A program made the translations under genes and the position numbers. DNA of 64,000 nt from an uncultured Candidatus Brevefilum sp. (lineage in GTDB: Bacteria; Chloroflexota; Anaerolineae; Anaerolineales; Anaerolineaceae). This document shows, piece by piece, positions 16,402-34,359 of this stretch; position 1 is the first letter of the stretch, and each line of letters starts with the position of its first letter. The notes below the pieces were generated by a model. The model was not told the origin of the DNA, made no database searches, and saw only the letters and a program-made list of their open reading frames with translations. The stretch is from contig CAZLEK010000001.1 in assembly GCA_964558525.1 (NCBI GenBank), positions 22,443 to 86,442 on the forward strand. The letters are read 5' to 3'.

Positions 16402-17513
16402 TGACCTTCTTCTCTGGCAAAGCGGTAATAGGCTGCGCAGGCTCCCTCTGAGGACACCATGGGCGCCCCGAGAGGGGATTGGGGCGTACAGAGGGTGCCA
16501 AAAGCCGGGCATTGATTAGGTTTCTTTAGCCCTTGCAGGACCTGCCCGGCAATGCAGATCTTTGATTCTTTGGTTTGGATCTCAGCGGTCTCAAACCGAT
16601 GGACGGCATCAAATGGCGCAAAAGCGGATCGGAGGCCAAAACCGCTCTGGGGGATCGTGCCAATCCCGCGCCAGTTACGGTCTACGGGTTTGAAGACTTT
16701 TTGGATTAGTTTTTGGGCAGCCTGATTGCCTTCAAAACTGACTGCGCGGGGATAAGCGTTCTCAACGCTCACCCGACCTGCTTCAAGGAGCTTAACCGTT
16801 TCCAGGATGCCATTCACCAGGTCTAATGGCTCAAAGCCCGTCACGACAATCGGTGTTTGGTACTGCTCTGCAATCGGGGGGTATTCCCAATAGCCCATGA
16901 CCGCGCAGACATGTCCGGCCGCCAGGAAGCCCTGAATGCGGTTTTCTGGGCTGGAAAGGATAGCGTGCATGGCTGGCGGAACCAGCACGTTGGCTGGCAG
17001 AATGGTGAAATTTGTTAGATCCAGCTTCTGAGCCTGGAGAACCGCCATGGCGTTGGCCGGGGCTGTGGTCTCAAAGCCGATGGCAAAGAATACAACTTGT
17101 TGGTCGGGATGTTCCTGGGCGACTTTGACGGCATCCATCGGAGAATAAACCACCCGTACATCTCCACCGTCAGCGCGTACAGAGAATAGATCTGCCTGCG
17201 ACCCGGGTACGCGCAGCATGTCGCCAAAGGAGGTGAAGATCACCCCAGGCTGCCGGGCGATCCACAGGGCTTGATCGATCAATTCCAGGGCAGTCACACA
17301 GACCGGGCAGCCTGGACCATGGACCAGTTCGATTTCGTCGGGCAGGAGCTGGTCGAGGCCAAACTGCATGATCGCGTGGGTTTGGCCCCCACAGATCTCC
17401 ATCAGGGTCCAGGTTTGGGTCACCCTTTCCCGGATCTCATGGATGACCGCTTTAACCAGGCGTGCATCCCGGTAACCAGCGAGAAAATCGGGCGCGTTTT
17501 GAGAGGGCATCAA
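16398..17513 (-). CDS. hypD: Hydrogenase maturation protein HypD
   Basis: 371 aa with [14 protein letters not shown] and GFETT motifs. Confidence 0.95.
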
Positions 17514-17515
17514 AC

Positions 17516-17761
17516 TCAGCTCTCACTTTCATCAGCCAGGTCTGACATCTCCTGCAAAATCTCGAGGGTTTCCCGGGCTTCCTCTTCGCTGAGCAAATTC
17601 AGGGCGAAACCTGCATGGACGATTGTCCAATCTCCGGGTTTGGCCTCCGGGATCACCTCAATACAGGCCTCCCGGCTGACGCCGCCGAAATCAATTTTTG
17701 CCATTTTGGTGCCGTGATCTTCATAAATGGAGAGTATTTTGCCTGGAATTCCAAGGCACAT
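17516..17761 (-). CDS. hypC: Hydrogenase maturation chaperone HypC
   Basis: 81 aa with an MCLGIPG N-terminus. Confidence 0.9.
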
Positions 17762-17764
17762 GGT

Positions 17765-20059: not shown

Positions 20060-20070
20060 CGGGATAATTT

Positions 20071-20736
20071 CTACCTGCCTGGCAGTTTAGAGCGCAACCA
20101 CTGGAGCCAGTTCTCCAGACCTTCACCGGTTTTACAGGACAGCGCGAAGGTTTGCAGCCCGGGGTTGAGCATTTCCACCCCTTTTTTGAAGTAATCCATA
20201 TCAAAATCAAGATAGGGCAGGAGATCGATTTTATTGATAATCAGAACATCCAGTCCGCGGTAGATATTGGGATACTTGTAGGGCTTATCGTCGCCTTCCG
20301 GCACGCTGGAGATGACGATACTGCTGTGCGTTCCCAAGTTAAAAGCAGCCGGGCAGATTAGATTGCCAACATTTTCGACGATCAGCAGATCCAGTTCATC
20401 CAATGGTAGCTGGGCCAATGCGCTTTCTATCATTAAAGAATCAAGATGACACTGCCCGCCGGTATTCACCTGGACGGCGGGCATTCCCGCCGCAGAAATT
20501 TTGTCTGAGTCGATGGTCACCGGCGCGGTATCACCCTCAATGACGCCAATTTGGACGTTTTCATCCAGCAAGGCATGGATGGTTGCCAGAATAAAGCTGG
20601 TTTTACCTGCCCCTGGCGATGCCATCAGGTTGATCGCATAGGTGTTGGATTTGTCGATCCGCCGGCGATTTTCATCTGCCAGGCGGTCATTTTCACTTAG
20701 AATTTTTTCAACAATGGTTACGCGTTTTTCACTCAT
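20071..20736 (-). CDS. hypB: Hydrogenase nickel-insertion GTPase HypB
   Basis: SPGAGKTS P-loop and an NKIDL motif. A short form with no His-rich or CxxCGC N-terminus. Confidence 0.93.
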   Translation of the reverse strand: MSEKRVTIVEKILSENDRLADENRRRIDKSNTYAINLMASPGAGKTSFILATIHALLDENVQIGVIEGDTAPVTIDSDKISAAGMPAVQVNTGGQCHLDSLMIESALAQLPLDELDLLIVENVGNLICPAAFNLGTHSSIVISSVPEGDDKPYKYPNIYRGLDVLIINKIDLLPYLDFDMDYFKKGVEMLNPGLQTFALSCKTGEGLENWLQWLRSKLPGR

Positions 20737-21083
20737 GATTCCCTTTGTATTTCGATGCTGTCCAGATTAAATTCATCGCCGGAAAGAACTTTTATCCTGG
20801 CGCTGCCGCAGTTTGGGCAGGGTTGAAGCTCATCCTCTAGTGCATATTCACACTGGCACTCGAGGCAGATCAGTTTGGCCGGGACCCGTTTGAAATGCAG
20901 TTTGGCATCCTCACAGAGGGTGTCCTTACTGATCATTTCCCAGTAAAACTGAACGGAGTCATCCACGATGCTGGACAGGCGGCCAATTTCAAGGTAAATA
21001 TCGGTGACTTTCGTCGCCTGGGCTTTTTCAGCATGCTTACAAGCGATCTCAAGCACGCTTTCGGTTACTGAAAGTTCATGCAT
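20733..21083 (-). CDS. hypA: Hydrogenase nickel-insertion protein HypA
   Basis: MHE N-terminus and CLECQ...CPNCGS zinc site. Its stop overlaps the hypB start. Confidence 0.9.
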   Translation of the reverse strand: MHELSVTESVLEIACKHAEKAQATKVTDIYLEIGRLSSIVDDSVQFYWEMISKDTLCEDAKLHFKRVPAKLICLECQCEYALEDELQPCPNCGSARIKVLSGDEFNLDSIEIQRES

Positions 21084-21128
21084 TACCTTATTATAAACCT
21101 TTTAGGATAATAATTATAGTATTTGGGG

Positions 21129-21605
21129 TCAATCGCTCTGGCAGGACAGGATGCCGAGGAGATGCAGGCGATGGTTCAACATGCGAGAAGCCACAATGTT
21201 TGCCAGCCTACGCATTATGATGAAACCCAGGTTGCAATCCAACTCACAGACGGCCATCAGCCTGTCAGCCGGAAAAGTGAGCAGGTTGGCGCGCTCCAAA
21301 ACACGGGCGGTGCTGGTTTTTTGCCTTACCACGGGAGTCAGGCTGGACCAACCGATGACATCCAAAGATTCAGCTGTCAGGATCGGCAGTGAGCCATGCC
21401 CCGGGACGTAGCTTTCAAGACACACCCGTCCTTCCAGGATGATATACAGGAAGGGATGCTGTTCGCCTTCTGAAAAAATGACGTCGCCTCTTTCGTAGGT
21501 GCGAATTTCCGCGATCTTGGTTAAACGCTGAAGGCTGTCTGGGGCCAGTTCCAAGAACCAGGGAATGGTCTTTATTGTGGATGTCAAATCAGCCTGATTA
21601 AGCAT
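21129..21605 (-). CDS. Stand-alone cyclic-nucleotide-binding-domain protein
   Basis: 158 aa with a cNMP-binding beta-barrel pattern (GDVIFSEGEQHPFLYIILEGRV...). No HTH or other output domain follows. Confidence 0.8.
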   Translation of the reverse strand: MLNQADLTSTIKTIPWFLELAPDSLQRLTKIAEIRTYERGDVIFSEGEQHPFLYIILEGRVCLESYVPGHGSLPILTAESLDVIGWSSLTPVVRQKTSTARVLERANLLTFPADRLMAVCELDCNLGFIIMRRLANIVASRMLNHRLHLLGILSCQSD

Positions 21606-21717: not shown

Positions 21718-22215
21718 TTAATCCCTGTCGGCAACCCACTTCCAAATCCGCTGGGTCGCTTTTTCTGCCAGGGCAGCCGTTTTGGGGCTGAGTTCACGCT
21801 CAAACTCAAAGTGGAAACCCCGCACGGAAACGAGGATCGCTTCTGGTATTCGGTCATAGATCGCGCCAGCAATGGAGAGAACTGTTCTGGGGGACATATG
21901 GTGCGTCAGCGGAGATTTCTCGTATTCTGGCGAGAGCTCAACCCAGGCGATCTCTTCCGGGATATCAGATGTATGCGCGTCTACGAAGCACACCCGATTG
22001 TAATGAGAGATGTCTTCTGCCAATTCCGGGTAGATCTGGAGGATGAACATCAGGTCAACGGTATCGCTTTCAACCTCGATGGCGGCGCCGGGGTCTTCCG
22101 GTATGCTGGCGCCGACCTTTTCAGCCAGGGCTTTAAGGATGTGCCAGCCCACGCCATCATCCTGGCGGTCAGCATTGCCATATCCGATCACAAGCGTATC
22201 TGCTTTCATAACCAA
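21718..22215 (-). CDS. hoxW: NiFe hydrogenase maturation endopeptidase (HoxW/HycI family)
   Basis: VIGYGNADRQDDGVGWH motif. Lies directly downstream of hoxH. Confidence 0.85.
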   Translation of the reverse strand: MVMKADTLVIGYGNADRQDDGVGWHILKALAEKVGASIPEDPGAAIEVESDTVDLMFILQIYPELAEDISHYNRVCFVDAHTSDIPEEIAWVELSPEYEKSPLTHHMSPRTVLSIAGAIYDRIPEAILVSVRGFHFEFERELSPKTAALAEKATQRIWKWVADRD

Positions 22216-22280: not shown

Positions 22281-23708
22281 CTAATCCCGTTGGAGGGTCT
22301 GAAGCACTTTGCCTTCAGGGTCCAATACATCGATTTGGATTGGCATTTGGCCAATCGCATGTGTGGAACAGGAGAGGCAGGGGTCGTAGGCGCGAATGGC
22401 GGCCTCCACCCGGTTGAGCATGCCCTCTTGAACCTGAGGTCCTTTGACGTAGGTTTTCGCAACGGAATCCACCGCTTCGCTCATCGCCCAGTTGTTGTGG
22501 CCGGTGGAGACGATCAGATTGACCCGCTCGAGCTGGCCGCTGGGTTTGGCTTTGTAATGGTGGAACAAAGTGCCGCGCGGCGCTTCGATCACGCCTACGC
22601 CCTCGCCTTTGAAGTTAAATTTCTTATTGAGGATGTCCTTGCTCAAAATATCCGGATCTTCCAGGAGTTCGCGGGTCCGTTCAACAGCAAAGAGGGTTTC
22701 GATCAGGCGGGCATAATGGTAGTACAGGGTTTGCGGGACGGGTTTGCCGCCATTGATCTGCCGGTAAACCTCGAACTCTTTTTGCGCCAGGGGCGTATCG
22801 ATTTTGTCAATCGCATTCAAACGTCCCAGGGGGCCCACCCTGTAGACGCCTTCCGGCCAGCCCATCTTTTTGTAATATGGGAATTTGAGATAGGACCAAT
22901 CTTCGACATGCTCAGATACTATCTCCAGGTAGTCTTGAGCGTCAAAACACTCAAGCTGCTTCCCGTCTTTGTCGACGAGCCGAATGTTGCCTTCGTAAAG
23001 CTCCAACCCATTTTCAGGCGTCACCAGGCCAAAATAGCCTGTGTCAAAGACAGCGAATTTTTCGACATCTTCAATATTGGCATCGGCCCAATCTTTGATC
23101 AGTTGGATCCCGATCAAAGTGGTTTCCTGGGCTTTTTCGAGGCCAGCGCGCATATGATCACGTTTTTCTTCAGTCAGGGCCCGATTGACCCCGCCAGGTA
23201 CGGCGAAGTTCGGGTGGATCCTTCGGCCGCCCACCTGGTAAATGATGTCCTGCCCGAATTTTCGCAGTTGTACGGCTCGTACGGTCAGGTCCGGGTCAGC
23301 GCCGATCAAACCCACGACATTGCGAGTAGCTGGTTCGGCATCAAAGCCCAAGATCAAATCAGGTCCGGCGAGTTCGAAGAAATGCATGCCGTGGCTCTGG
23401 ATGATCTGTCCCATGTGCATGAGTTCACGCAGCAGGGAGGCTGGACGAGGCGGTTCCACACCCATGACGATATCGCCAGCTTTGGCGGCGGCAAGGTGAT
23501 GGCTTACCGGGCAGATCCCACAAATGCGAGGTGTGATCTGCGGCATTTCAAACACCATGCGCCCTTCACAGAATTTTTCGAAGCCTCGGAATTCGTTGAC
23601 ATGGAAATAAGCATGGTCAACAGCGCCGTCATCATTCATATGGATGGTGACCTTGGCGTGACCTTCAATTCGGGTCACTGGTTCAATGGTTATTTTTTCA
23701 GTTGCCAT
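22281..23708 (-). CDS. hoxH: NiFe hydrogenase large subunit, bidirectional group-3d-like
   Basis: [10 protein letters not shown] (N-terminal ligands) and [10 protein letters not shown] (C-terminal ligands) plus a tail of about 25 aa for endopeptidase cleavage. The ATG at 23708 is preceded by AGGAGA. Confidence 0.95.
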
Positions 23709-23718
23709 AAGTTTTCTC

Positions 23719-24261
23719 CTAGTGCCAGTGCAGTTTTTCATCTTTAATGTCTGGGATGCGGCCCTGGGCCAGCTCCGTCAGCGCATAAAAGATCACATCT
23801 GCATCGGGGGGACAACCGGGGATGTGCAGGTCTACTTTCACAACCTCTTGGACTGCACGCACCCGGGTCATAACTGCTAATTCAGGCGATGAGGGAATTT
23901 TGCCTTCTTGGTCATTGCTCTCCGCCTCAATATAGGCTCGTTTAAGGGCAGCATCCACGCCCACGAAGTTGCGCATGGCAGGAACGCCGCCGAAAACCGC
24001 GCAGTCTCCCAGGGCAACCAGGAATTTGCTGCGTGCGCGCATCTTTTTGGCGACCTCCTCGTTATAGGTATTGTTGATCCCACCTTCGAGGATTCCGACG
24101 TCCACGCCATCCTCATCCGGTTCTTTCAGGTCAGTGATGGGGGTCGATCGCAAATCCACCAGTTCCACAACCTGCAAGATACGTTCATCAATATCCAGGA
24201 TGGACATATGGCAGCCAGCGCAACCACACAACCAATCCGTTGCTACTTTAGGTTTTGACAT
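23719..24261 (-). CDS. hoxY: NiFe hydrogenase small subunit (HoxY type)
   Basis: 180 aa with WLCGCAGCHMS proximal-cluster motif and GCPP. Confidence 0.9.
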   Translation of the reverse strand: MSKPKVATDWLCGCAGCHMSILDIDERILQVVELVDLRSTPITDLKEPDEDGVDVGILEGGINNTYNEEVAKKMRARSKFLVALGDCAVFGGVPAMRNFVGVDAALKRAYIEAESNDQEGKIPSSPELAVMTRVRAVQEVVKVDLHIPGCPPDADVIFYALTELAQGRIPDIKDEKLHWH

Positions 24262-24306
24262 TTAAGCTTCCTTTCAACTCATCAACCAGTATTTTACCGG
24301 GATTTG

Positions 24307-26202
24307 TCATGCTTCCTGTAATGCCACAGTGGGGGTGCGGGCCTTCAGGCTGGCTTCCCAATCTGTTTCAGGTTCAAGCGAGAGCGTTTCTGCGATTCTT
24401 TGCAGGGCTTCTTGGGAAGAAAGGACGCCCTCTGGGGATTCCAGGGCCTGCACAGCCCTCTGTAAGCGCCCATCAAGGCTCAAATAGGTCCCAGATTGCT
24501 CCGCCCACATGGCGACGGGGAGGACGACATCGGCATTGCCGGTCAGCTGCGAGCCGTAGGCGGCCTGAGCCACCACAAAGGGGACTTCTTCTAAGGTCTT
24601 TGTCAGCTTCTGAGAGGGCTCTTCATCTCCCAGCAGAACAAACGCCGATTGGATCCCGTCGGTTTTAATGGCTGCTTCCAACTCAAGCTGGGCTGCAGCC
24701 ATGCTGTTGGCATCGCCTTTGACCCCAATCAGAGCGGCATCCAAGACCTCCGCCAGCTTGAGCAGGGTTTGAAGCGCGGCTTTATCGGCATTCTCGGCAA
24801 AAGACGCGCCGTAAATGATGCAGGGTTTTTCTGCATTCTGCAGCGCCTCCGCTGCCTTGTTCAAGGCCTCGTCATCCGAACCTTTTTCCACTGCCTTCAG
24901 CAGTTCAGCCAGGAATTGTGATTCATCGCCGGGTTTGAGGGTCAATGAGTCTGTGGCGTTTTCAACCAGCTGGTTTTTTTCGCCGCCAGCAACGATCAGC
25001 CGGGTGCCTTCCAGGAGCTGGCGTTTGATGAAGAAACCAGCCACCTGGTGTTCGTTGACCAGGTCGAGTTCAAGCGACAGCACGGCGTCCGTGTGCTTGA
25101 GCGCATTCAGGCTGGATTCGAAGGGTTTGCCCAGCTCATCAGCCAGAGCGGATAAGGCGGCCGTCGGTTTGCCCTCTTCCAGGCTGGTGACCAGTCCGGC
25201 TTTGAGACCATCGGCGAAGATGGCTTTGAACAGGGCCAAATCCTCCACAGGCAGGCGGGTGGACGCCATTGCAGCCAGGCCTTCGCCGTTACCAAGACCG
25301 TCTGCAACCGCCTGGAGGGCTTCTTCCCAGGTGGCAGCTTTGAGGCTGCCGTTTTTCCGCACCAGAGGCGTTAATAAACGAGAGCGGTCGTCTTCCAGGG
25401 GCAGGAAGCGGCCTTTGTCACACAGCAGGCCGTGGTTGGGTTCTGCATCCCATTCACCTTCGATGCGGATCAGGCGGTTGTCCCGGGTGAGGACATCGCG
25501 CTGGCAGCCGACCGAGCATTCCACGCAGACACCTACATGGTGGTCGACTTCGGTCTCTTTGCCCTGGTAGGCGCTCTGGCGGTCGATCAAGGCGCCGGTG
25601 GGACAGATCTGCACACAGGTGCCGCAGGAGATGCAGGTGCTCTCTCCCAGGGGCACGTTGTAATCCGCCACCAACAGGCTGTCTGCACCGCGCTCTTCAA
25701 AGCCGAGGGTGTAATTGCCCACCAGCTCCCCACAGGCGCGAACGCAGCGGCGGCAGAGGATGCAGCGGTTGTTGTCCAGTACGATGAAGGGGTGCGAGGC
25801 GTCGACTTCAAAGGGCTGCCAGTTCGGCTGGAGATCCCAATGGGTCATGTCTTCATCATAGGCCCGGTTTTGAAGTTCACAGTCGCCATCGCTGACCGGG
25901 CAGTACATGCAGAAATGGTTGCGTTCACTAAAGATCAGGGTCAACACGAATTTACGGGCGTTTACGATCTTTTCGGTATTGGTTTTGACCACCATACCGT
26001 CAGTGGCTGGGAGTGTGCAGGAGGGCTGCAGTGTGCGGGCGCCCTCGACTTCCACCATGCACAGCCGGCAGCCGCCGTATGGGGTCAGTTGAGGATGGTG
26101 GCACAGGGTGGGGACGTACAGACCAGCCGCTTCTGCAGCCTCCAATACGGTGGTTCCTTCCTGCACCTCAATCGTTTTATCGTCAATTGTGAGTTTTATC
26201 AT
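24307..26202 (-). CDS. hoxU: NuoG-like Fe-S subunit in the HoxU position
   Basis: Domain order: [2Fe-2S] (CHHP...CRLC...C), His/Cys cluster (HFCMYCPVSDGDC), two CxxCxxCxxxCP motifs, a molybdopterin-oxidoreductase-type 4Fe-4S motif (CVECSVGC...C), then about 330 aa that are nearly Cys-free. The start is at 26202 (GGAG upstream) or 26217. Confidence 0.85.
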   Translation of the reverse strand: MIKLTIDDKTIEVQEGTTVLEAAEAAGLYVPTLCHHPQLTPYGGCRLCMVEVEGARTLQPSCTLPATDGMVVKTNTEKIVNARKFVLTLIFSERNHFCMYCPVSDGDCELQNRAYDEDMTHWDLQPNWQPFEVDASHPFIVLDNNRCILCRRCVRACGELVGNYTLGFEERGADSLLVADYNVPLGESTCISCGTCVQICPTGALIDRQSAYQGKETEVDHHVGVCVECSVGCQRDVLTRDNRLIRIEGEWDAEPNHGLLCDKGRFLPLEDDRSRLLTPLVRKNGSLKAATWEEALQAVADGLGNGEGLAAMASTRLPVEDLALFKAIFADGLKAGLVTSLEEGKPTAALSALADELGKPFESSLNALKHTDAVLSLELDLVNEHQVAGFFIKRQLLEGTRLIVAGGEKNQLVENATDSLTLKPGDESQFLAELLKAVEKGSDDEALNKAAEALQNAEKPCIIYGASFAENADKAALQTLLKLAEVLDAALIGVKGDANSMAAAQLELEAAIKTDGIQSAFVLLGDEEPSQKLTKTLEEVPFVVAQAAYGSQLTGNADVVLPVAMWAEQSGTYLSLDGRLQRAVQALESPEGVLSSQEALQRIAETLSLEPETDWEASLKARTPTVALQEA

Positions 26203-26227
26203 GTTCTGATACTCCATTAATTGTTTT

Positions 26228-27874
26228 TCAGTCGATCTGATGTGCCCGGCGTCCGCTCATGGGGCAGACGCCTGCGGGACAAACTTTGAGTTTGATATGG
26301 GCTTCAACTTCCGCCCGGAAATGGTCTAAGATGTCGTTGAGGGGTGAGCCGGCTGTTTGGCCTAGTCCGCAGTTGGAGAGCTGGATCAGCTGCTCGCTCA
26401 TCATCTGCATGTCCTCCAAATCTTGCAGGGTTCCAACACCCTCTGCAATGTTCGAAAGGATCTCAAAGGCGCGCTTATTTCCGATCCGGCAGGGGTTGCA
26501 CTTGCCGCAGCTTTCCTGGCGGAAGAAGTTCAGCAGCACTTTCGCTAGGTCCACCACACAGGTTTCCTGATTGGCGATCAGCAGCGCACCGGAGCCCAGG
26601 GAAACCCCCGCCTTGCTGAAGGAGTCAAAATCCATGGGTGTATCCTGCAGGCTGGCTGGAATGATGGAACCGCTTGATCCACCGGTCTGGGCAAGTTTGA
26701 AGCTGGACCCATTCTTCATCCCTTTGGCGTAAATTGAGATGACCTCCCGCAGGGTGATTCCCATGGGAACCTCGATCAAACCGGTCACATTGACATTGCC
26801 CAAGATGGTATAAACCTTGGTGCCCGGGCTGGAAGGGGTACCGATGGCTTTATACCAGTCGGCCCCATTCCGGATGATGGCCGGAATATTTGCCAGGGTT
26901 TCCACGTTGTTGACCAGGGTGGGTTTGGCCCACAGGCCAGCTGTGGTGGGATAGGGTGGACGGGGACGGGGTTCGCCCCGATTGCCCTCAATCGATTCGA
27001 TCAAGGCCGTTTCTTCACCGCAGATATAGGCCCCCGCGCCGGCATGGATATGCAGGTCGAAGGAAAAGTCCGTCCCGAAAATCTCTTCACCCAGCAGGCC
27101 GTATTCTCGAGCTTGTCGGATGGCTTTCTTCATGCGGGTGATGGCCAACCCATATTCACCGCGAATGTAAACAAAGCCTTCATCGGCGCCAACGGCATAG
27201 GCGGCGATCATCATTGCTTCAATGATGGCATGCGGGTCGCCCTCGAGGACCAGGCGATCTTTAAAAGTACCCGGTTCGCTTTCATCGGCATTGCAGATCA
27301 CATATTTTTTGTCGCCCTTAGCGCCGGAGACAAACTGCCATTTCAAACCGGTGGGGAAACCTGCGCCGCCGCGTCCCCGCAGGCCTGACTTTTTAATCTC
27401 GTCGATGACCGCTTCGGAGGTCATCTCTTTAAGGACTGTTCCAAGCGCCTCGTAGCCTTCTTTGATGATGTACTCATCAATGTTCTCCGGGTCAATCAGG
27501 CCGACGTTTTTTAGAACGATGCGGTTTTCCGCCGGCAGGCTGCCCTTGCGGGAAGTCAACCAGGCGATCCGGCCAGACAGGTCGTAGGGGGAAATTTGCT
27601 TTTCCTCAACCACACGACCTTTGTAGAGGTGTTCTTCCACAATTTCCGAAACATCCTCAGGGGTTACCCGGCCGTAAATGACGGCATCGGGGTAGACCAG
27701 CACGAGGGGATTATGGCCGAGCTTATCGATGTCATTGGCCATCGAAAGCGAAATTTCTTCTTCCAGGCCGTAGGCCTGAATTTGCCTTTGGAGCTGGTTA
27801 AAAACCTCCAGCGCGCCCTGTTCCAGGCTGTCAGGATCGCTTGATACCAGTACCATTGATCGTGTTGCTTTCAT
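26228..27874 (-). CDS. hoxF: NuoF-like NAD(P)H/FMN diaphorase subunit
   Basis: GLRGRGGAGFPTGLKW FMN/NADH motifs and ESCGKCNPCR...CGLG N3 cluster. No C-terminal ferredoxin tail. Confidence 0.9.
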   Translation of the reverse strand: MKATRSMVLVSSDPDSLEQGALEVFNQLQRQIQAYGLEEEISLSMANDIDKLGHNPLVLVYPDAVIYGRVTPEDVSEIVEEHLYKGRVVEEKQISPYDLSGRIAWLTSRKGSLPAENRIVLKNVGLIDPENIDEYIIKEGYEALGTVLKEMTSEAVIDEIKKSGLRGRGGAGFPTGLKWQFVSGAKGDKKYVICNADESEPGTFKDRLVLEGDPHAIIEAMMIAAYAVGADEGFVYIRGEYGLAITRMKKAIRQAREYGLLGEEIFGTDFSFDLHIHAGAGAYICGEETALIESIEGNRGEPRPRPPYPTTAGLWAKPTLVNNVETLANIPAIIRNGADWYKAIGTPSSPGTKVYTILGNVNVTGLIEVPMGITLREVISIYAKGMKNGSSFKLAQTGGSSGSIIPASLQDTPMDFDSFSKAGVSLGSGALLIANQETCVVDLAKVLLNFFRQESCGKCNPCRIGNKRAFEILSNIAEGVGTLQDLEDMQMMSEQLIQLSNCGLGQTAGSPLNDILDHFRAEVEAHIKLKVCPAGVCPMSGRRAHQID

Positions 27875-27883
27875 CAGGCTCTC

Positions 27884-28363
27884 CTATTTGTAATTGCTGA
27901 GGATATCCGGCACCTGGTCAGGTGTCACGTTCCCGTAGATATCATTGTCAATGATCATGACCGGGCCGACGCCGCATACCCCCAGGCAGCTGACGGTTAG
28001 TAAGGTCCATTGATCGTCTTCGCTGGTTTCGCCCTTATCCAATCCCAATTCCTGCTGTAGTTTTTGCCAAACCAGGCGTCCCCCGGCGACATGGCAGGGC
28101 GCGCTCTCACAGAACTGGATCACATGGCGTCCACGCGGTTCCGTGGAAAGCATTCGATAGAAGGTCGCCACGGAATAGATCTGGCTGGTGGGGACCTGCA
28201 TCTGCTCGCTTAATTCCTGGATGGCTTCATCGGAGATGTAGCCCAGGGCGCTGTTAATCTCGTGAAGAATGGGGATGAGTTCTGCTTTCTCACGTCCCTG
28301 TTCTTCGACAAGATCCCGCACGAGCTGACGGGCATCCTGTCCTTCCTTGACTGCAACTGACAT
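27884..28363 (-). CDS. hoxE: NuoE-like [2Fe-2S] diaphorase subunit
   Basis: CESAPCHVAG...CLGVCGVGP motifs; 159 aa; GAGGAGGA RBS. Confidence 0.88.
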   Translation of the reverse strand: MSVAVKEGQDARQLVRDLVEEQGREKAELIPILHEINSALGYISDEAIQELSEQMQVPTSQIYSVATFYRMLSTEPRGRHVIQFCESAPCHVAGGRLVWQKLQQELGLDKGETSEDDQWTLLTVSCLGVCGVGPVMIIDNDIYGNVTPDQVPDILSNYK

Positions 28364-28399
28364 AACCTTCCTCCTCTGTGTTGATTCCTTGGCGAATTT

Positions 28400-30184
28400 T
28401 CAGACAATCTCAATGGCATCATAGGGACAGAGCTGTTCACAGATGCCGCATTTAATACAAATGTCAGGGTCAATCACATGCGTCTGGCGGCGCTCACCGG
28501 AGATGGCGTCCACGGGGCAGTTCCTGGCGCAGAGTGTGCAGCCCGTGCACGGCCCGTCTTGGATTTCAAAGCGGATCAGCGCTTTGCAGACCTTAGCCGG
28601 GCAGCGCTTCTCAAAAATATGGGCTTCATATTCGTCCAGGAAATGCTCCAGGGTGCTCTTGACCGGGTTGGGAGCGCCTTTCCCCAAACCACATAGACTG
28701 TTTTCGTTGATCTGATCGCAAAGCATCCGCAGGGTGTCAATATCTTCCGGGACCCCTTTGCCTTCGCAGATGCGGGTCAGGATCTCCAGGATGCGGCGGG
28801 TGCCTACCCGGCAGGGGGTGCATTTTCCGCAGCTTTCATCCTGGGTGAACTCCATGAAAAACCGGGCGATGTCGACCATGCAGGTGTCTTCGTCCATGAC
28901 AACCAGACCGCCGGAGCCGAGGATCGAGCCGGCTTCCGCCAGGGCTTCGTAATCCATTGGGAGGTCCAGGTAAGCTTCCGGCAGGCATCCCCCCATGGGA
29001 CCGCCGGTTTGGACAGCCTTGAACCGCTTGTCTTCTTTAATGCCGCCGCCGACATCATAGATGATCTCTCTCAGGGAGATCCCAAAAGGGACCTCGATCA
29101 GGCCGGTGTTCTTGACGTCGCCAGCCATGGAAAAAGTTTTGGTGCCGGTGCTTTTTTGATAGCCCAGGCTGGCAAACCATTCGGCGCCCTTCAGGATAAC
29201 CTGCGGGACAATGGCATAAGTCTCCACGTTGTTGATATTGGAGGGTTGGTCCCATAGGCCTTTCTGCGCCGGGAAGGGCGGACGAGGGCGAGGTTCGCCG
29301 CGCTGACCCTCAATGGAGGCCATCAGCGCAGTCTCTTCGCCGCAGACGAAAGCCCCCGCACCCATGCGCACTTCAAGATCAAATGAGAAGCCGGAACCGA
29401 GGATGTCCTCGCCCAGGAGGCCAAAGCTGCGGGCCTGTTCGATGGCGGTCTTCATCGTGCGGACGGCAATCGGGTATTCCGCCCGACAGTAGATGTACCC
29501 CTGGTGGGCGCCAGCGGCATAGGCCCCAATGATCATGCCTTCGATCACGGCATGGGGGTCGCCTTCCAGTACCCGGCGGTTGGCAAAGGCGCCTGGGTCG
29601 CCCTCATCGGCATTGCAGATCATGAATTTTTGATCGCCTTCGGCAGTGCGGATAAAACGCCACTTCAGGCCAGTGGGAAAACCTGCGCCGCCTCGGCCGC
29701 GCAGGCCGGAATCCAATACTTCCTGGATGGTCTCTTCCGGGGTCATTTCAGTCAGGGCTTTGCCCAGAGCCAGGTAGCCATCCCGTGCGATGTATTCCTC
29801 AATATTAAAGGGATCGATTTCCCCGATATTCTTTAAGACGATCCGGACTTCTTTGGCCTGCGGTGCGGACAATTCTTCATCAACCACCGCTCTGGCCTCC
29901 TGGATGTATTGTTCCGCGACACGTCCTTTGAGGAAATGCTCTTCCACCAGGAAGGGAACATCATCTACCGATAAATTGGTGTAGTGAACCGCTTCAGGGT
30001 AGACCATCAGGTCCGGACCCATGACGTCAGGATCCCCGATGCGGGAGGTTTCCAGCACCTGAATCTCATCAACCAGGCCTTGTTTGACCAGCTCATCCTG
30101 AAGCGCGTCAATCAGATCGTAGGCGCCTTTTTGGACGCAGACGGGATCGACGGATACGAGGACATGTGAACGAAAATAAGCCAT
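28400..30184 (-). CDS. NuoF-like flavoprotein with a C-terminal 2x[4Fe-4S] domain (HndC/HydB type)
   Basis: Paralog of hoxF (shared GLRGRGGAGFPTGLKW, GEPRPRPP and ESCGKCTPCR blocks) with an added tail: CTGCTLCARNCP...CIKCGICEQLCP. Confidence 0.9.
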   Translation of the reverse strand: MAYFRSHVLVSVDPVCVQKGAYDLIDALQDELVKQGLVDEIQVLETSRIGDPDVMGPDLMVYPEAVHYTNLSVDDVPFLVEEHFLKGRVAEQYIQEARAVVDEELSAPQAKEVRIVLKNIGEIDPFNIEEYIARDGYLALGKALTEMTPEETIQEVLDSGLRGRGGAGFPTGLKWRFIRTAEGDQKFMICNADEGDPGAFANRRVLEGDPHAVIEGMIIGAYAAGAHQGYIYCRAEYPIAVRTMKTAIEQARSFGLLGEDILGSGFSFDLEVRMGAGAFVCGEETALMASIEGQRGEPRPRPPFPAQKGLWDQPSNINNVETYAIVPQVILKGAEWFASLGYQKSTGTKTFSMAGDVKNTGLIEVPFGISLREIIYDVGGGIKEDKRFKAVQTGGPMGGCLPEAYLDLPMDYEALAEAGSILGSGGLVVMDEDTCMVDIARFFMEFTQDESCGKCTPCRVGTRRILEILTRICEGKGVPEDIDTLRMLCDQINENSLCGLGKGAPNPVKSTLEHFLDEYEAHIFEKRCPAKVCKALIRFEIQDGPCTGCTLCARNCPVDAISGERRQTHVIDPDICIKCGICEQLCPYDAIEIV

Positions 30185-30219
30185 TGATACCTTCCAGAAT
30201 TTATTAGATTCTGTGTGTT

Positions 30220-30588
30220 TTATCCTTCAATCTGATAGTCTTTGACGATCTCACCTTCGAGAACGTGTTCTTTAATCACGCGACGGGCCATGTCGGGGTT
30301 GACTTTCCCATAGGTGACTTTTTCCTCACCGGGCTTCACAACTTGCACGATCGGCTCATATGAATCCAGGCCAATATTGCCCGTCTGTCGGACGATGATA
30401 TCGCTCAGGTTCTCGTGTTCGATCAAATCCAGGATCGCTTTGAGGGTTTCACGCGCCCCTGCCGCGATGCCGACGGTGCCCATGCCCACAATGACCTCTG
30501 TCTTTCCCGAGGTTTCTTTAAGCTGCTGTTTTTTGAGGGCTTCATCGCGAATTTTTTTGAGGTCGTCTAAAGATTTTACGTTTGCCAT
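30220..30588 (-). CDS. HndB-like thioredoxin-fold protein lacking all cluster cysteines
   Basis: 122 aa with the GMGTVGIAAGA and TGNIGLDSYEP pattern of thioredoxin-like [2Fe-2S] ferredoxins, but no Cys in the whole protein. Confidence 0.7.
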   Translation of the reverse strand: MANVKSLDDLKKIRDEALKKQQLKETSGKTEVIVGMGTVGIAAGARETLKAILDLIEHENLSDIIVRQTGNIGLDSYEPIVQVVKPGEEKVTYGKVNPDMARRVIKEHVLEGEIVKDYQIEG

Positions 30589-30605
30589 GTTTCACTCCTG
30601 TAGGT

Positions 30606-31178
30606 TTATTGTCCTGTTGCTTGTTTCGATTCAGCATCCTCGCGGACAGTATGGATGCCGGTTTCGATATCCTGGCGAATGAATTTCATCACCGCGGGTT
30701 CGGAAAGGGGCAGCCCCATCAGGGTTTCCTTGATCGGTTCGTCGTCGAACACAAAACGCTGCTGGTCTACCCGGTATTCGAAGATCCAATGCACTTCTGG
30801 CGAGCCAATGATCAGCGTTAACAATGTGCCCGTCAGATCACCCAGGGGCATGCGGTCAATGTGGCTGTGTTTGAAGGTCGCCTCGACCGTGGTCCCCTGA
30901 CCAGGTTTGGATTGAATTGTAAAGGTCCCTTCACAGGCCTCCGCGGCTGCTTTGAAAAACGGGATGCCGAGGCCCACTTTGCGGGTCGTGCGGGAGGTCA
31001 CAAAGGGATCGGTGATCCTCGTCAGAGTCTCAGCGTTCATCCCTTGGCCGTTATCCTCAATGCGGATCCTGAGCAAATCCTCTGTCAAGTTCTCTTCCAC
31101 CAGGATCCTGATTTGATCAGCGCCTGCTGAAATGCTGTTTTCAGCGATATCAAGGATATGCAGGGCCAGTTCACGCAA
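30606..31178 (-). CDS. GHKL (HATPase_c) ATP-binding-domain protein without a phosphoacceptor domain
   Basis: HILDIAENSISAG (N box), EDNGQGM (G1) and GLGIPF (G2); 190 aa. Confidence 0.75.
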   Translation of the reverse strand: MRELALHILDIAENSISAGADQIRILVEENLTEDLLRIRIEDNGQGMNAETLTRITDPFVTSRTTRKVGLGIPFFKAAAEACEGTFTIQSKPGQGTTVEATFKHSHIDRMPLGDLTGTLLTLIIGSPEVHWIFEYRVDQQRFVFDDEPIKETLMGLPLSEPAVMKFIRQDIETGIHTVREDAESKQATGQ

Positions 31179-31179
31179 G

Positions 31180-31695
31180 TCAGGATTCCTGAGATTTGAG
31201 ATCCTGGATGGTCTTTGGGAAGCGGTTGGCTTTCACGCGGCCCTGGACCTCATCATCGACAACAATCACCGGCGCCTGGCTGCATGCGCCTACGCATCGG
31301 CAGAGCTCCAGGGTGATCAATCCGTCTTCGGTGGTCTCTCCTGGCTCAATGCCGAGGATCTGTTTGGCTTTCTCAACAATCTGGTCAATGCCGGCCACAT
31401 AGCAGGCTGTGCCCACGCAGAACTTGATGGTATGCTGGCCGCGTGGGGTGGTGGTGAAGAAGGAATAAAACGACACCACGCCGTGTATACGGCTGATCGG
31501 TTCACCCAAGCCTTCGGCGACATACACCTGCATCTCTGATGAGATGTAACCGATGGCGTCTTGAATGCCGTTGAGCACCACCATCGTGGCGCCGGGTAGA
31601 TCCTTGTTCTCATCAAGGATGCGGTCTACAAGGGCCCTTTTTGTTGGGTCCAGCAGGGCCTCGTCGGTGAATGTTTTTTCTAGTGTTTTCTGCAT
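31180..31695 (-). CDS. NuoE-like [2Fe-2S] subunit (HndA/HydC type)
   Basis: CVGTACYVAG...CRCVGACSQAP motifs; 171 aa. Confidence 0.88.
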   Translation of the reverse strand: MQKTLEKTFTDEALLDPTKRALVDRILDENKDLPGATMVVLNGIQDAIGYISSEMQVYVAEGLGEPISRIHGVVSFYSFFTTTPRGQHTIKFCVGTACYVAGIDQIVEKAKQILGIEPGETTEDGLITLELCRCVGACSQAPVIVVDDEVQGRVKANRFPKTIQDLKSQES

Positions 31696-31830
31696 CTAAT
31701 GTCATTCTCCAGGTATCGCTTGAGGTTAACAGGCGCGGTGGACTGCGATTGTGAAATTAACCACAAATGAGTTTAATCCGGCTTGATGATCTGGTCAATA
31801 CACAAATGTCATATAGAACGTGGAGAATCG

Positions 31831-32631
31831 TCAATTACGATTTTTAAGCTCAAAATCGCGCTCGTTTTCCCCCTTGAACGCCATTTTTATCTCTGCAATG
31901 GTGGGTTTTTCGATCCAAAAGCGATTGGCACCTAAAAAATCCTCCAGATAATGCACATCACCGCTCTGGATGAGCGGGAAGCTGCCTAATTGGGGGTATT
32001 TTTCAACCGCATCTTCACGAGAGATATGCCGTGAGATCTCAAGCGCGATAGGGTGCGGTTCCGGCGGTACGAAACCCAAACGGTAGATCAGTCCAAAGGC
32101 CTGTCGGTCCACATGAGCCGGGATGAAGAGCCCCCCCAGGTCGGTGACGGTCTGGTAGGCGTCTTCATAGCTCAAGCGCGTGGAATTGATCAACAAGATT
32201 TCCTTTCGGCGGATAAATTCTCCGGTCTCATCAACAATAAATTGTTCTCCAAAATAATCTATCTTATTGGGAATATCAGGCAGGGTTTTGTCAACGATCG
32301 CCTGGAGGGCCTGGATCTGCTCCAGGCGATCAAATAGACACAAGCTGTGAATTTCCTCTTCGGTTTGCAGTTCCATACCGGGCAGCACAACCAGGCTGCT
32401 GCCTTCGGCTGCCTTCATCACTGCTTGAATGTTCTCGCTGGCGTTGTGGTCGGTGATGGCGATCAGGTTGATGCCCCGTGCGATGGCATTTTGTACGATG
32501 AGCGGAGGGATCATCTCCACGCCCGCACAGGGTGAAAGGACAGTGTGCACATGGAGTTCTGCCTGAAAAGTTTTCAAGATTGGTTTTCTTTGCGTCTCTA
32601 GTCTTGTGAAGCCCTTAAACCAAGCTCCCAA
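31831..32631 (-). CDS. PHP-domain metal-dependent phosphoesterase
   Basis: ELHVHT and ITDHN motifs. The start is uncertain because the track start overlaps the upstream gene by 34 nt. Confidence 0.8.
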   Translation of the reverse strand: MGAWFKGFTRLETQRKPILKTFQAELHVHTVLSPCAGVEMIPPLIVQNAIARGINLIAITDHNASENIQAVMKAAEGSSLVVLPGMELQTEEEIHSLCLFDRLEQIQALQAIVDKTLPDIPNKIDYFGEQFIVDETGEFIRRKEILLINSTRLSYEDAYQTVTDLGGLFIPAHVDRQAFGLIYRLGFVPPEPHPIALEISRHISREDAVEKYPQLGSFPLIQSGDVHYLEDFLGANRFWIEKPTIAEIKMAFKGENERDFELKNRN

Positions 32632-32948
32632 AGCCTGCCAACGGTTTCGAAGTTGTCCGCAGGTGTGGAGAGGATCGTCACGCCCTTTTGTTCCGCCTGG
32701 GTGAGGGTCTCTGGATCGGGTTGGGCGTCTTCGGTGATGATGATGGCAGACAAATCCAGCAGGGCAGCCACAGCCACAATGTTGCTGTGCGCCATGAGGG
32801 TGATCCAGAGGCCTTCCGGGCTGGCCCCAGTCATGACGCAGCTCAGCAGGTCGGAGCAGTAGCCGCTTTTGACCTGCACAGCCGACAAGTCTGTACCCTG
32901 GGTGAGAATTTCTAGGCCAAGTTGATCGATAATTTCCTGGAGGTTCAT
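32598..32948 (-). CDS. DRTGG-domain protein
   Basis: 116 aa with CSDLLSCVMTGA...LWITLMAHSNIVAVA, typical of stand-alone DRTGG proteins. Confidence 0.72.
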   Translation of the reverse strand: MNLQEIIDQLGLEILTQGTDLSAVQVKSGYCSDLLSCVMTGASPEGLWITLMAHSNIVAVAALLDLSAIIITEDAQPDPETLTQAEQKGVTILSTPADNFETVGRLWELGLRASQD

Positions 32949-32978
32949 AAGCGCTTTCTTAAATTTCTATTACGGAGG

Positions 32979-33950
32979 TTAGGCAACAGTCTGGGGGTTG
33001 TTGTCGGTGTCATTAAGGTACATGATCATATACAAATTGGTGCCGCGTTCCTGGGAAGAGATCAGACGCATTTCGTCCACGCAGCGCTTGATATTGACCA
33101 AACCCATCCCAGCGCCAAAGCCCATCTCGCGTACCTCGTTGGTAGCGGTGGAGTAGCCGGGCTTCATGGCCAGTTCGACATCCTCAATGCCAGGTCCGTT
33201 ATCATAGGCTTCCATGGTAATCTTGTGGGGTTCGATCTCCACCCGCAGGGTGCCGCCTTGATCGGTATGGATGATCAGGTTCATCTCCGCTTCGTAAACA
33301 GCGATCCCGCAGCGCCGGGCGAGTTGGGGCGCCGCGCCCAGACGTAACAGGGCGCGTTTGATATTGCTGGAGGCGTTGCCCCCGTGAATAAAATCGCCTT
33401 TTTGGATGTCATAGCGCAAGATCAGGCTGGTCCGATCGGAGACGATGTCTTCAAAGAGGTGGCTGGCACGGTAGCGGATCAATTCTTCAGCGTGATAATC
33501 TCGCTGCAGGGCAATTAACAGGCCGTTGGAGATGTCGCCTTTGGTAATGATCCCGGCCAGGGAGCCATTTGTATTTAAAACCGGCAAACGTCCGTACTTC
33601 GTTCGGTTAAAAGTCTTGAGGGCTTCCACCACCGGGTCAGACTTTCGCACCGTGGCCAGGTCGGTGCTCATATAATCTCGAACCTGAGCGGAAAGGTTCT
33701 TCTCACGCAGGGCTCGGATCAGGTCTTCAATGCTCAGGATGCCGATCAATTCATCATTTTGAAGCACCGGGGCGCCAGAAAAACGCTCCTTTTGGAAAAT
33801 GTCCAGGGCGGTTTCCATCTGCATGTCTGGGGAGAGGGAATACACCTCTTCCGTCATCACCTCATGGATGCGCAGTTCATAGGCCAGCTCTTCGGCTCGG
33901 GTGACCGTTTCGGCGCTTTTATCGGAAATGGTGGGGGTTTTGGAGGCCAT
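32979..33950 (-). CDS. CBS-pair plus SpoIIAB/RsbW-like GHKL serine kinase domain protein
   Basis: Two CBS repeats in the N-terminal half. The C-terminal half has EAEMNLIIH, DNGPGI and GFGAGMGL boxes. Confidence 0.8.
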   Translation of the reverse strand: MASKTPTISDKSAETVTRAEELAYELRIHEVMTEEVYSLSPDMQMETALDIFQKERFSGAPVLQNDELIGILSIEDLIRALREKNLSAQVRDYMSTDLATVRKSDPVVEALKTFNRTKYGRLPVLNTNGSLAGIITKGDISNGLLIALQRDYHAEELIRYRASHLFEDIVSDRTSLILRYDIQKGDFIHGGNASSNIKRALLRLGAAPQLARRCGIAVYEAEMNLIIHTDQGGTLRVEIEPHKITMEAYDNGPGIEDVELAMKPGYSTATNEVREMGFGAGMGLVNIKRCVDEMRLISSQERGTNLYMIMYLNDTDNNPQTVA

Positions 33951-33966
33951 GGGTTAAACGGTTTCC

Positions 33967-34359
33967 TCAGGCACAGTCGTCTTGGGTTTGGGTTTCCAGG
34001 CTTGGCAGGCCGGCCTGAAATAGGATGCCGCAGGCGTCATACAGGCCGTGGGTCGTGGTGACCAGGGGGATGTCCTCCTGGTTGGCCAGATCGATGGTTT
34101 CCTGGGCGGGGTTCTTGCCGCGGATGAAGATGATGGCGTGAATATCGGCAATCAGGGCGGTCCGTACGACCTGGGGGTTGCACAGCCCGGTCAGCAGGAT
34201 CGATTCCGGTTTGATTGAGGAGAGCACATCACTCATCAGGTCTGCGCCCATCGCCCCGGCGATCTCTCTGCCGTCTACAGCCTGATCTGTCAGCACTTTT
34301 CCGTTAATGAGTTGAATGATTTTGCTTAATTTCATCTTTTCCTTCTTTAATTTGATCAC
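33967..34359 (-). CDS. DRTGG-domain protein
   Basis: 130 aa with GADLMSDVL...ILLTGLCNPQVVRTA. An alternative start lies at 34335. Confidence 0.72.
   Translation of the reverse strand: MIKLKKEKMKLSKIIQLINGKVLTDQAVDGREIAGAMGADLMSDVLSSIKPESILLTGLCNPQVVRTALIADIHAIIFIRGKNPAQETIDLANQEDIPLVTTTHGLYDACGILFQAGLPSLETQTQDDCA

Follow-up and report, generated by a model that had tools for sequence, protein, structure and literature searches.

A NiFe-HydABCSL-type hydrogenase locus with two kinds of flavin module in the Anaerolineae

The hydrogenase locus and its catalytic core

This study concerns a hydrogenase locus found in 64,000 nucleotides of contig CAZLEK010000001.1 (GenBank assembly GCA_964558525.1, positions 22,443 to 86,442 of the forward strand), from an uncultured Candidatus Brevefilum sp. 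This whole stretch is referred to as the window, and positions are counted from its first letter. Open reading frame (ORF) calls together with Pfam and NCBIfam domain assignments placed ten closely packed genes on the minus strand at 21718-31695 (Table 1). It is well supported that the locus is a NiFe-HydABCSL (Bfu type 3) operon in a form belonging to the Anaerolineae (Chloroflexota), and the identities assigned to its individual parts are very likely correct. The element that is extra by comparison with the characterised NiFe-HydABCSL system is a second NuoE/NuoF pair, NuoE2/NuoF2, which is inserted between hydB and hydA.

A first-pass annotation made from the sequence alone had described the order of these genes and the short gaps between them, including the 36 nt between hydB1 and nuoE2, and the ORF calls confirmed both; the other gaps are 1, 17, 35, 9, 10-25, 45, ~10 and 65 nt. 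Its description of two NuoE/NuoF pairs and a single NiFe dimer in one plausible transcription unit also held. The hydB1-nuoE2 gap, which is 32-38 nt in the related loci L001 and L002, carries a ribosome-binding site, and a consensus scan found no promoter-like or terminator-like site in this junction or in the other gaps of the cluster. Because the gap that joins the two modules is so short, contains a ribosome-binding site and has no terminator in it, it is plausible from the sequence that all ten genes belong to one transcription unit. The candidate promoter located upstream of hydC1 by the same kind of scan is weak, since promoter-like matches were no more frequent than expected from shuffled sequence. 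The ORFs of two of the genes extend beyond the likely starts: that of hydA spans 26217-24307 (636 aa), with a likely true start at 26202 that gives the length seen in homologues, and that of hydL spans 23741-22281, with a likely start at 23708.

The products of hydA, hydS and hydL are well supported as the H2-activating core and its iron-sulfur wire. HydL carries an 11-residue motif and DPCLSCSTH as its N- and C-terminal CxxC motifs, and its top match in the Protein Data Bank (PDB) is chain 7T2R_D of the Acetomicrobium mobile enzyme (577 bits, residues 16-486), ahead of MvhA (421) and HoxH (5XF9_D, 404); it is 54% identical to HydL of Acetomicrobium hydrogeniformans. HydS matches 7T2R_E best, over its full length, and has cysteines at positions 14, 17, 87 and 150. 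The top PDB sequence match of HydA is 7T2R_A. Its motifs correspond to one [2Fe-2S] cluster, a His-ligated [4Fe-4S] cluster, two ferredoxin-type [4Fe-4S] clusters and a Molybdop_Fe4S4 cluster, and its Pfam architecture, including Molybdop_Fe4S4 and Molybdopterin, is that of Acetomicrobium HydA, with no pterin-binding domain. HydA is 32-34% identical, end to end, to HydA of three relatives from the Synergistota and Desulfovibrionaceae (32% for A. hydrogeniformans). In an AlphaFold2 model of HydA the C-terminal domain alone was confident, and the top of the fold search was complex I NuoG tied with 7T2R_A/7T30_A, a result that does not separate the two.

The NiFe-HydABCSL from A. mobile (7T2R/7T30) was purified as five subunits, Anamo_1675-1678 and 1681, and HydD, HydP and HisK are additional genes of its operon (Feng 2022; Schut 2022). 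The first-pass annotation had named an Acetomicrobium enzyme as a characterised bifurcating example, and the 7T2R matches make it the closest characterised system: HydA, HydS, HydL and HydB1 of the window all match A. mobile chains best, and the backbone hydC-hisK-hydD-hydB-hydA-hydS-hydL-hydP is common to both. The identity of the locus as NiFe-HydABCSL follows from these best or near-best matches among solved structures and from an operon order like that of Feng 2022. Five of six testable features of this enzyme type were found; as far as the sequence can tell, the departures are the NuoE/NuoF insertion and the loss of the ligands of one cluster, B5, described below.

Three genomes outside the Chloroflexota gave the same backbone with one flavin module each (3/3). 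A. hydrogeniformans has HydC-HisK-HydD-HydB(597 aa)-HydA(693 aa)-HydS-HydL-HydP, an Aminivibrio genome has this layout minus HisK, and Fundidesulfovibrio butyratiphilus has HydC-HydB-HydA-HydS-HydL-HydP. The Acetomicrobium region upstream of hydC (L084:793-4005) also encodes a 439-aa Fe_hyd_lg_C protein that looks like a sensory-type FeFe hydrogenase.

The first-pass annotation had read the locus differently, as a complete group 3d HoxEFUYH cassette behind an Hnd/HydABC-type flavin module whose FeFe hydrogenase gene had been replaced. The gene order fits this superficially, as HoxEFUYH/HoxFUYH (5XF9) has the same plan of a NuoE/NuoF-like diaphorase, an iron-sulfur connector and NiFe small and large subunits. 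In addition, the NCBIfam HoxU model matches residues 6-220 of HydA, under its cut-off (score 233 versus 333), and the precomputed Pfam entry PF27537 'HoxH' matches HydL of relatives. However, PF27537 also matches the Acetomicrobium HydL and so does not define Hox enzymes, HydS and HydL are nearest to 7T2R, and the connector of the window is a HydA of 631 aa with a NuoG-like C-terminal domain whereas HoxU has ~240 aa. Neither NuoE-like protein reaches the NCBIfam HoxE cut-off of 224 (132 for NuoE2 and 152 for HydC1). HoxF resembles NuoF2 in having no C-terminal ferredoxin domain, but the HoxF of Synechocystis has an N-terminal [2Fe-2S] cluster together with AFM/F/GGPSG (2026 preprint), where NuoF2 has TFK, Y and GGSSG and no N-terminal cysteines.

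The replacement part of that reading fared no better. The front-half gene set is indeed common to the window and to the FeFe HydABC/Hnd enzymes of Thermotoga maritima, Thermoanaerobacter kivui and Solidesulfovibrio fructosivorans, but the genes that follow in the window lead to a NuoG-like HydA and a NiFe dimer, and the absence of an FeFe subunit was borne out to the extent that no H-cluster domain was found among the window ORFs scanned, a set short of every ORF. In Synergistota and one Desulfovibrionaceae genome HydB is followed directly by HydA, HydS and HydL with no FeFe gene, which argues against a cassette swap. The module that had been taken for an add-on, HydC-HisK-HydD-HydB, is the canonical front half of the NiFe-HydABCSL operon, and the extra pair is the one that had been called HoxEF. 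Taken together, a Hox cassette that replaced an FeFe gene is a very unlikely account of the locus.

Table 1. Features of the hydrogenase locus and its surroundings (window coordinates unless a locus is named)
Feature	Position	Strand	Description
HydC1, NuoE-like [2Fe-2S] protein, bifurcating-type flavin module	31180..31695	-	171 aa; Pfam 2Fe-2S_thioredx
HisK-like GHKL ATPase	30606..31178	-	190 aa; HATPase_c domain alone
HydD, HndB-like thioredoxin-fold protein	30220..30588	-	122 aa; weak NCBIfam 2Fe-2S ferredoxin match
HydB1, bifurcating-type NuoF-like flavoprotein	28400..30184	-	594 aa; thioredoxin (Trx)-like N-terminus, FMN/NAD core, B1, Zn/B2, C-terminal 2x[4Fe-4S]
HydB1-NuoE2 junction	28364..28399	-	36 nt; GGAGG ribosome-binding site
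NuoE2, second NuoE-like [2Fe-2S] protein	27884..28363	-	159 aa; Pfam 2Fe-2S_thioredx
NuoF2, non-bifurcating-type NuoF-like flavoprotein	26228..27874	-	548 aa; cluster-less Trx-like N-terminus, FMN/NAD core, B1, Zn/B2, no ferredoxin tail
HydA, NuoG-like iron-sulfur subunit	24307..26202	-	631 aa; A1-A5 motifs and molybdopterin-fold C-terminal domain
HydS, NiFe small subunit	23719..24261	-	180 aa; Pfam Oxidored_q6; single proximal [4Fe-4S]
HydL, NiFe large subunit	22281..23708	-	475 aa; CxxC motifs and cleavable C-terminal extension
HydP, hydrogenase maturation endopeptidase	21718..22215	-	165 aa; NCBIfam TIGR00072
Candidate operon promoter TTGACC-17-TAAACT, 5' of hydC1	31770..31798	-	Consensus scan; weak
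Putative regulatory genes: DRTGG, CBS+HATPase, DRTGG, PHP-domain	31831..34359	-	Pfam; upstream of hydC1
Cyclic-nucleotide (cNMP)-binding protein and hypA, hypB, hypF, (hypC), hypD, hypE	15325..21605	-	Pfam; downstream; order same in relatives
Fdh-Bfu-type cluster loci of relatives	L028:12239-17237; L065:12696-18276; also L037, L044, L045, L049, L055, L056, L060, L074, L076

Two flavin modules of different kinds

The two NuoF-like proteins had been called obvious paralogs in the first-pass annotation on the basis of shared sequence blocks, and this agrees with 50% identity over 540 aa and with a ferredoxin-like tail (two CxxCxxCxxxCP motifs) in HydB1 alone. The corresponding NuoE-like proteins, NuoE2 and HydC1, are 35% identical. 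The comparison below indicates that the two pairs also differ in kind, HydB1 being of the bifurcating type and NuoF2 of the non-bifurcating type.

HydB1 matches A. mobile HydB (7T2R_B) over its full length with 818 bits, and HydB of an FeFe HydABC enzyme (7Q4V_B) with 777 bits; it is 55-60% identical to HydB of the three single-module relatives (60% for A. hydrogeniformans). When its sites were aligned to the A. mobile HydB ligands, B1 was found to be CCCC and B2 CCHCC, and all eight cysteines of the C-terminal domain (CTD) were present. The signature in the window is PGAFA, GAGAF and GGPMG, and all 54 HydB1 orthologues (54/54) have PGAF[M/A], GAGAF and GGP[M/A]G together with the 8-Cys CTD. 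Its partner HydC1 has 7Q4V_C (HydC of FeFe HydABC) and 7T2R_C (111 bits) as top PDB matches, and its four C1 cysteines are kept in 57 orthologues.

HydB1 does depart from A. mobile HydB in these motifs and at its N-terminus. The latter has PGAFM, GGPSG and the B5 cysteines. At the B5 positions of HydB1 (N-terminal domain, window 29900-30184, minus strand), the window and its close relatives have S-C-R-P, where Pelolinea and other Anaerolineae have C-C-R-C. The change from PGAFM to PGAFA occurred in the same lineage as the loss of the B5 cysteines. The B5 [2Fe-2S] cluster was described as part of the invariant BfuBC core (Schut 2022), so its apparent absence is a lineage-specific loss, as read from these positions, of a cluster once counted in that core. 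A more recent study concluded that the minimal bifurcating site is B1-FMN-C1, that the low-potential electron exits through C1 and from there reaches B3/B4 of the HydB C-terminal domain, that the B2 site holds zinc, and that bifurcation does not require B5, for which Zn can substitute (Li 2025). Since B5 is dispensable and B2 is a Zn site, the loss in HydB1 should be tolerable, and on that view HydB1/HydC1 would have everything needed to bifurcate.

The two small genes between hydC1 and hydB1 belong to the same front half. The HisK-like protein is 51% identical to the gene product at the same position in A. hydrogeniformans; HisK of the A. mobile operon lies outside the holoenzyme (Feng 2022). 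HydD is 39-48% identical to Synergistota HydD and has an invariant His108 in 60 orthologues. It contains no cysteine at all and is therefore unable to bind an iron-sulfur cluster. HydD is still present in loci that have no HydC1, HisK or HydB1.

NuoE2 and NuoF2 exceed the NCBIfam equivalog cut-off of NuoE and the cut-off of NuoF, respectively. The top PDB match of NuoE2 is 7T2R_C (140 bits), and its [2Fe-2S] cysteines, which form the N1a/C1-type site, are kept in 60 orthologues. NuoF2 has a CCCC B1 site and a C-[A/S/T]-H-C-C B2 site, but the chain stops ~10 residues past B2, with no B3/B4 C-terminal domain, and the N-terminal B5 cysteines are missing. All 61 orthologues (61/61) share the signature EPGTFKD, GAGAY and GGSSG and have neither the CTD nor an N-terminal cluster. 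More than 120 NuoF2 clusters at >=84% identity were found, every one of them 542-558 aa long, so the truncation is conserved. An AlphaFold2 model of NuoF2, built on a low-diversity alignment of 16 sequences, had a mean pLDDT of 45 and was unusable. The NuoF2 sequence had no exact database record, and the nearest neighbours carried only generic cluster names.

The criteria proposed for non-bifurcating flavoproteins are T/S and K/S/A at the NADH site, a Tyr near the FMN, no GGPSG and no extra iron-sulfur domains (Losey 2020), and NuoF2 has all four features. It shares T..K in place of A..M at the NADH site, GAGAY, the absence of GGPSG and the absence of a C-terminal 2x[4Fe-4S] with Syntrophomonas wolfei Hyd1ABC, Syntrophus aciditrophicus HydAB and Nqo1/Nqo2 (Losey et al. 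2017, 2020). Across the orthologues, GAGA[F/Y] cleanly separated the HydB1 and NuoF2 families, and GAxW[F/Y] was mixed in both. By these sequence features NuoF2 is of the non-bifurcating type, like complex I Nqo1 and S. wolfei Hyd1B. There are also differences from the S. wolfei Hyd1 and Nqo1 modules: NuoF2 has the cluster-less Trx-like N-terminus and the Cys3His Zn site typical of Bfu HydB, and it shares an operon with a bifurcating-type paralogue. Those modules work with an FeFe H-cluster subunit or with a quinone module, whereas the presumed partner of NuoF2 is a NiFe core reached via the NuoG-like HydA. NuoE2/NuoF2 keeps the FMN, B1, the Zn site and C1, and on the view of Li 2025 it would have no exit towards ferredoxin.

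A separate NuoF phylogeny, as the first-pass annotation had proposed, put the two copies in distinct clades. The tree was built by neighbour joining on the flavoprotein core of 165 sequences, 150 of which represent the hits of a search through 1.84 billion proteins. The NuoF2 orthologues formed one clade with 100% bootstrap, and its sister group was of the non-bifurcating type in 100/100 replicates. HydB1 grouped with bifurcating-type proteins, including the formate-dehydrogenase-linked BfuB of the same genomes. An origin of NuoF2 by recent duplication of HydB1 and loss of the tail was considered and rejected, given the 50% identity and the placement with the non-bifurcating type in 100/100 bootstraps. 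A recent transfer of the NuoE2/NuoF2 pair is likewise unsupported, as its GC content and its GC content at third codon positions (GC3) are those of the adjoining genes. The suggestion that the two modules differ in nucleotide specificity found no evidence. Both flavoproteins keep the acidic residue of the NADE[G/S][D/E]PG motif, which we take to be the specificity-determining Glu of NuoF.

Distribution and conservation of the two modules

A scan with HydL over one genome per GTDB species found a relative in 529 genomes, and the best 80 (>=72% identity) were examined. Nearly all of these 80 are labelled Anaerolineae or unclassified Chloroflexota, and Pelolinea submarina MO-CFX1 and Levilinea saccharolytica KIBI-1, both in culture, are among them. 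One locus, L021 (JAWOHF010000167.1), comes from a bin labelled 'Candidatus Aminicenantes' and encodes a HydL 85% identical to that of the window; a binning error is more likely here than a true occurrence in Aminicenantes.

For counting, a locus needed 7.9 kb or more of sequence upstream of hydL, which left 62 distinct loci. HydB1 and NuoF2 occur in the order of the window in 56/62 of them, Pelolinea and Levilinea included, and because the order recurs to this extent the arrangement is not due to chance. L042 was counted as carrying both modules; its HydB1, NuoE2 and NuoF2 are each split into several frames (L042:3579-7540), which could be due to frameshifts introduced by sequencing or assembly, or to decay of the locus. 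Two loci (2/62), L011 and L068, keep HydD-NuoE2-NuoF2-HydA-HydS-HydL and have no HydC1, HisK or intact HydB1, with an N-terminal remnant of HydB1 retained in L011. A third locus with NuoE2F2 and HydASL and without HydC1, HisK and HydB1 is L043, where the flank is shorter. Four loci (4/62; L034, L041, L050 and L064) have HydA-HydS-HydL-HydP with unrelated genes upstream and no flavin genes nearby. The single-HydBC layout of the Synergistota was found in none of the 62 Anaerolineae loci.

Wherever NuoF2 occurred it lay between hydB or hydD and hydA (61/61 loci). This bears on the possibility that NuoE2/NuoF2, with or without HydA, is the NADH-input module of a membrane complex I, encoded apart from an 11-subunit nuo operon and co-regulated with the hydrogenase or shared with it. 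The NCBIfam scores of NuoE2 and NuoF2 are compatible with this, as are a NuoG model that covers all of HydA, under its cut-off, the public annotation of NuoF2 as NuoF and the presence in some Chloroflexi of an 11-subunit Nuo with nuoEFG elsewhere. However, HydA stays with HydS and HydL even where flavin genes are missing and is a hydrogenase subunit in A. mobile (Feng 2022), and no nuo membrane genes were found among the window ORFs scanned or by tblastn of the flanks in the 80 relatives. A complex I role for NuoE2/NuoF2 seems highly improbable.

The mean pairwise distances were 0.31 for HydB1, 0.30 for NuoF2, 0.28 for HydL and 0.63 for HydA. To judge from these values both flavoproteins are under strong constraint, evolving about as slowly as the catalytic subunits. 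Mirror-tree comparison over 29 genomes recovered the partners that were expected, with distance correlations of 0.71 for NuoE2-NuoF2, 0.60 for HydS-HydL and 0.59 for HydC1-HydB1.

In many Anaerolineae other than Brevefilum, hydP is followed by a third NuoE/NuoF set and a formate dehydrogenase alpha subunit (BfuC-BfuB-FdhA, Fdh-Bfu-type; Table 1), a cluster that the lineage of the window does not have. The possibility that this third set is an FeFe HydABC was rejected, since the Pfam domains are those of a BfuC-BfuB-FdhA formate dehydrogenase. In L065 FdhA is split into one ORF of 385 aa and one of 553 aa, which suggests an in-frame selenocysteine TGA.

These clusters also matter for a further alternative, in which NuoE2-NuoF2-HydA-HydS-HydL would be the sole hydrogenase, Hox-like and non-bifurcating, and HydC1-HisK-HydD-HydB1 a separate unit that is merely co-transcribed and either serves another partner, such as FdhA from the Fdh-Bfu cluster that relatives encode nearby, or functions on its own as an NADH:ferredoxin module. 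NuoE2F2 adjoins hydA and is the pair that is kept upon loss in Anaerolineae, the HydB1 clade takes in the FdhA-linked BfuB of L028 (100% bootstrap), and the resulting picture is close to that of the first-pass annotation. However, the formate dehydrogenase clusters of the relatives have a BfuC and BfuB of their own, and no function is known for a BfuBC pair without a BfuA-type partner. HydB1 is conserved as much as HydL, the HydC-HisK-HydD-HydB set stands directly 5' of HydA-S-L in Synergistota, and HydB and HydC of A. mobile were purified as subunits of the NiFe enzyme (Feng 2022). Both the exclusion of HydB1C1 from the hydrogenase and its service to another partner are therefore improbable.

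The genes around the cluster are conserved as well. HydP has an identical position in every related locus, and the upstream order DRTGG, CBS, DRTGG and PHP is kept in L001, L002 and most Anaerolineae loci. A 158-aa protein with a cyclic-nucleotide-binding domain (window 21129-21605, minus strand) lies between hydP and hypA, is kept there in most relatives and may be a regulator. Genes for the supply of metal centres (FeoB, SufB/SufD and hyp) are frequent in the vicinity of the hydrogenase operon, at 2053-3969, 10125-12903 and 13790-21083 of the window. On the plus strand (window 22275-23747 and 24815-26220), hydL and hydA are overlapped by long antisense ORFs (490, 251 and 262 aa); these are not genes but shadow ORFs that arise from GC-rich coding sequence.

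How two flavin modules may serve one NiFe core

It is on balance probable that a single NiFe core is built for two flavin modules from one operon, whether as two isoenzymes or as one particle with two FMN sites. The more specific proposal, that two alternative modules serve one HydASL core, one of them confurcating (NADH plus ferredoxin) and the other using NADH only, we hold to be about evenly balanced on the gene content and motifs described here. In this proposal HydB1C1 and NuoE2F2 would compete for a single docking site on the N-terminal domain of HydA. With HydB1C1 bound, HydA-S-L would couple NADH and reduced ferredoxin to H2 in a reversible confurcation. HydB1C1 comprises FMN, B1, the Zn site, C1 and the C-terminal B3/B4 domain, through which low-potential electrons would reach or leave ferredoxin. 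With NuoE2F2 bound, it would interconvert NADH and H2 without ferredoxin. The NuoE2F2 form would be thermodynamically useful only at low H2 pressure, for example when a hydrogen-consuming partner is present, and confurcation of NADH and ferredoxin would take over when H2 is not kept low. The HisK-like protein, HydD and the upstream DRTGG, CBS and PHP proteins would have accessory or regulatory, non-catalytic roles. Anaerolineae isolates grow better with hydrogenotrophic methanogens. A precedent for the second form is S. wolfei Hyd1ABC, which was reported to form H2 from NADH alone at very low H2 and whose HydB is likewise without B3/B4.

The first-pass annotation had proposed that the flavin modules were either alternative or stacked. 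The general idea survives, and 'alternative' is now better supported than 'stacked'. Each module is found alone in cis with HydASL (HydBC in Synergistota; NuoE2F2 in L043, L068 and L011), which points to alternative partners. The HydA of Anaerolineae (631-663 aa) does not exceed in length that of the single-module Synergistota (662-693 aa), so a second docking domain is not apparent. In addition, an uncoupled NADH site on a shared iron-sulfur wire would dissipate the coupling, which favours alternative over joint binding.

The stacked version would be one larger complex in which HydA-S-L carries both flavin modules, with at least seven subunits and two FMN sites, and it is unlikely. As an example, NuoE2F2 could dock on HydA while HydB1C1 joined via HydB/HydC contacts like those in the A. 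mobile dimer of pentamers, an arrangement that is doubtful to the same degree. The ten genes are tightly spaced and the layout recurs in 56/62 loci, both flavoproteins correlate similarly in distance with HydA and HydL, and the two HydC subunits of the A. mobile structure are in contact, with HydB adding to the dimer interface, all of which a larger complex could explain. However, the second NADH site, being uncoupled, would short-circuit energy coupling on one iron-sulfur chain, HydA has no extra domain compared with single-module relatives, the cofactors of the A. mobile pentamers are >40 Angstrom apart, and lineages with just one module exist.

Several points weigh against two alternative modules. 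Which proteins assemble together is inferred here from gene content, and co-transcription from one operon offers no obvious switch between the two forms. The distance correlations of the two flavoproteins with HydA (0.54 for HydB1-HydA versus 0.48 for NuoF2-HydA in the same 29 genomes) do not discriminate between the models. Flavin partners can also be encoded in trans, as the four loci with HydA-S-L and no flavin genes nearby indicate, so the NuoE2F2-only loci may hold HydBC elsewhere in the genome. Finally, HoxEFUYH of Synechocystis, which has no HydB C-terminal domain, was reported to bifurcate (2026 preprint), and absence of the CTD alone is therefore no proof that NuoF2 does not bifurcate, though its HoxF keeps the two features named above that NuoF2 does not have.

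How fermenting and syntrophic anaerobes dispose of NADH electrons as H2 is central to anaerobic energy metabolism and decides when ferredoxin is spent. Earlier descriptions of the bifurcating NiFe hydrogenase covered a single purified enzyme and a few genomes of Synergistetes and haloarchaea; in an analysis that excluded metagenomic data, NiFe-Bfu was placed in a six-member Synergistetes sub-clade and Halorhabdus (Schut 2022), whereas the host here belongs to the Chloroflexota. A full-text search, with subscription journals outside its scope, found no paper linking NiFe-HydABCSL to Anaerolineae or describing the second flavin pair. The surprise of the locus is not an Hnd module on a Hox enzyme but a bifurcating NiFe hydrogenase with an added complex-I-like NADH module. 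The enzyme type is common among the Anaerolineae, a core group in anaerobic digesters and sediments, and in this class it is almost always paired with the second, non-bifurcating-type module. Public annotation labels the genes of the locus as NuoF, HndC and formate dehydrogenase, and metabolic reconstructions of Anaerolineae have probably misread it.

With HydB1 and NuoF2 side by side, the locus is a natural experiment on which parts of HydB and HydC are needed for bifurcation, since the paralogues differ in the disputed features, and cultured carriers exist in P. submarina MO-CFX1 and L. saccharolytica KIBI-1. In the two-isoenzyme version, the ratio of the isoenzymes would set the ferredoxin spent per H2. 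If either version is true, a widespread group of fermenters, numbering dozens of Anaerolineae species or more in the GTDB scan, would have an inherent means of making H2 either with ferredoxin coupling or from NADH only.

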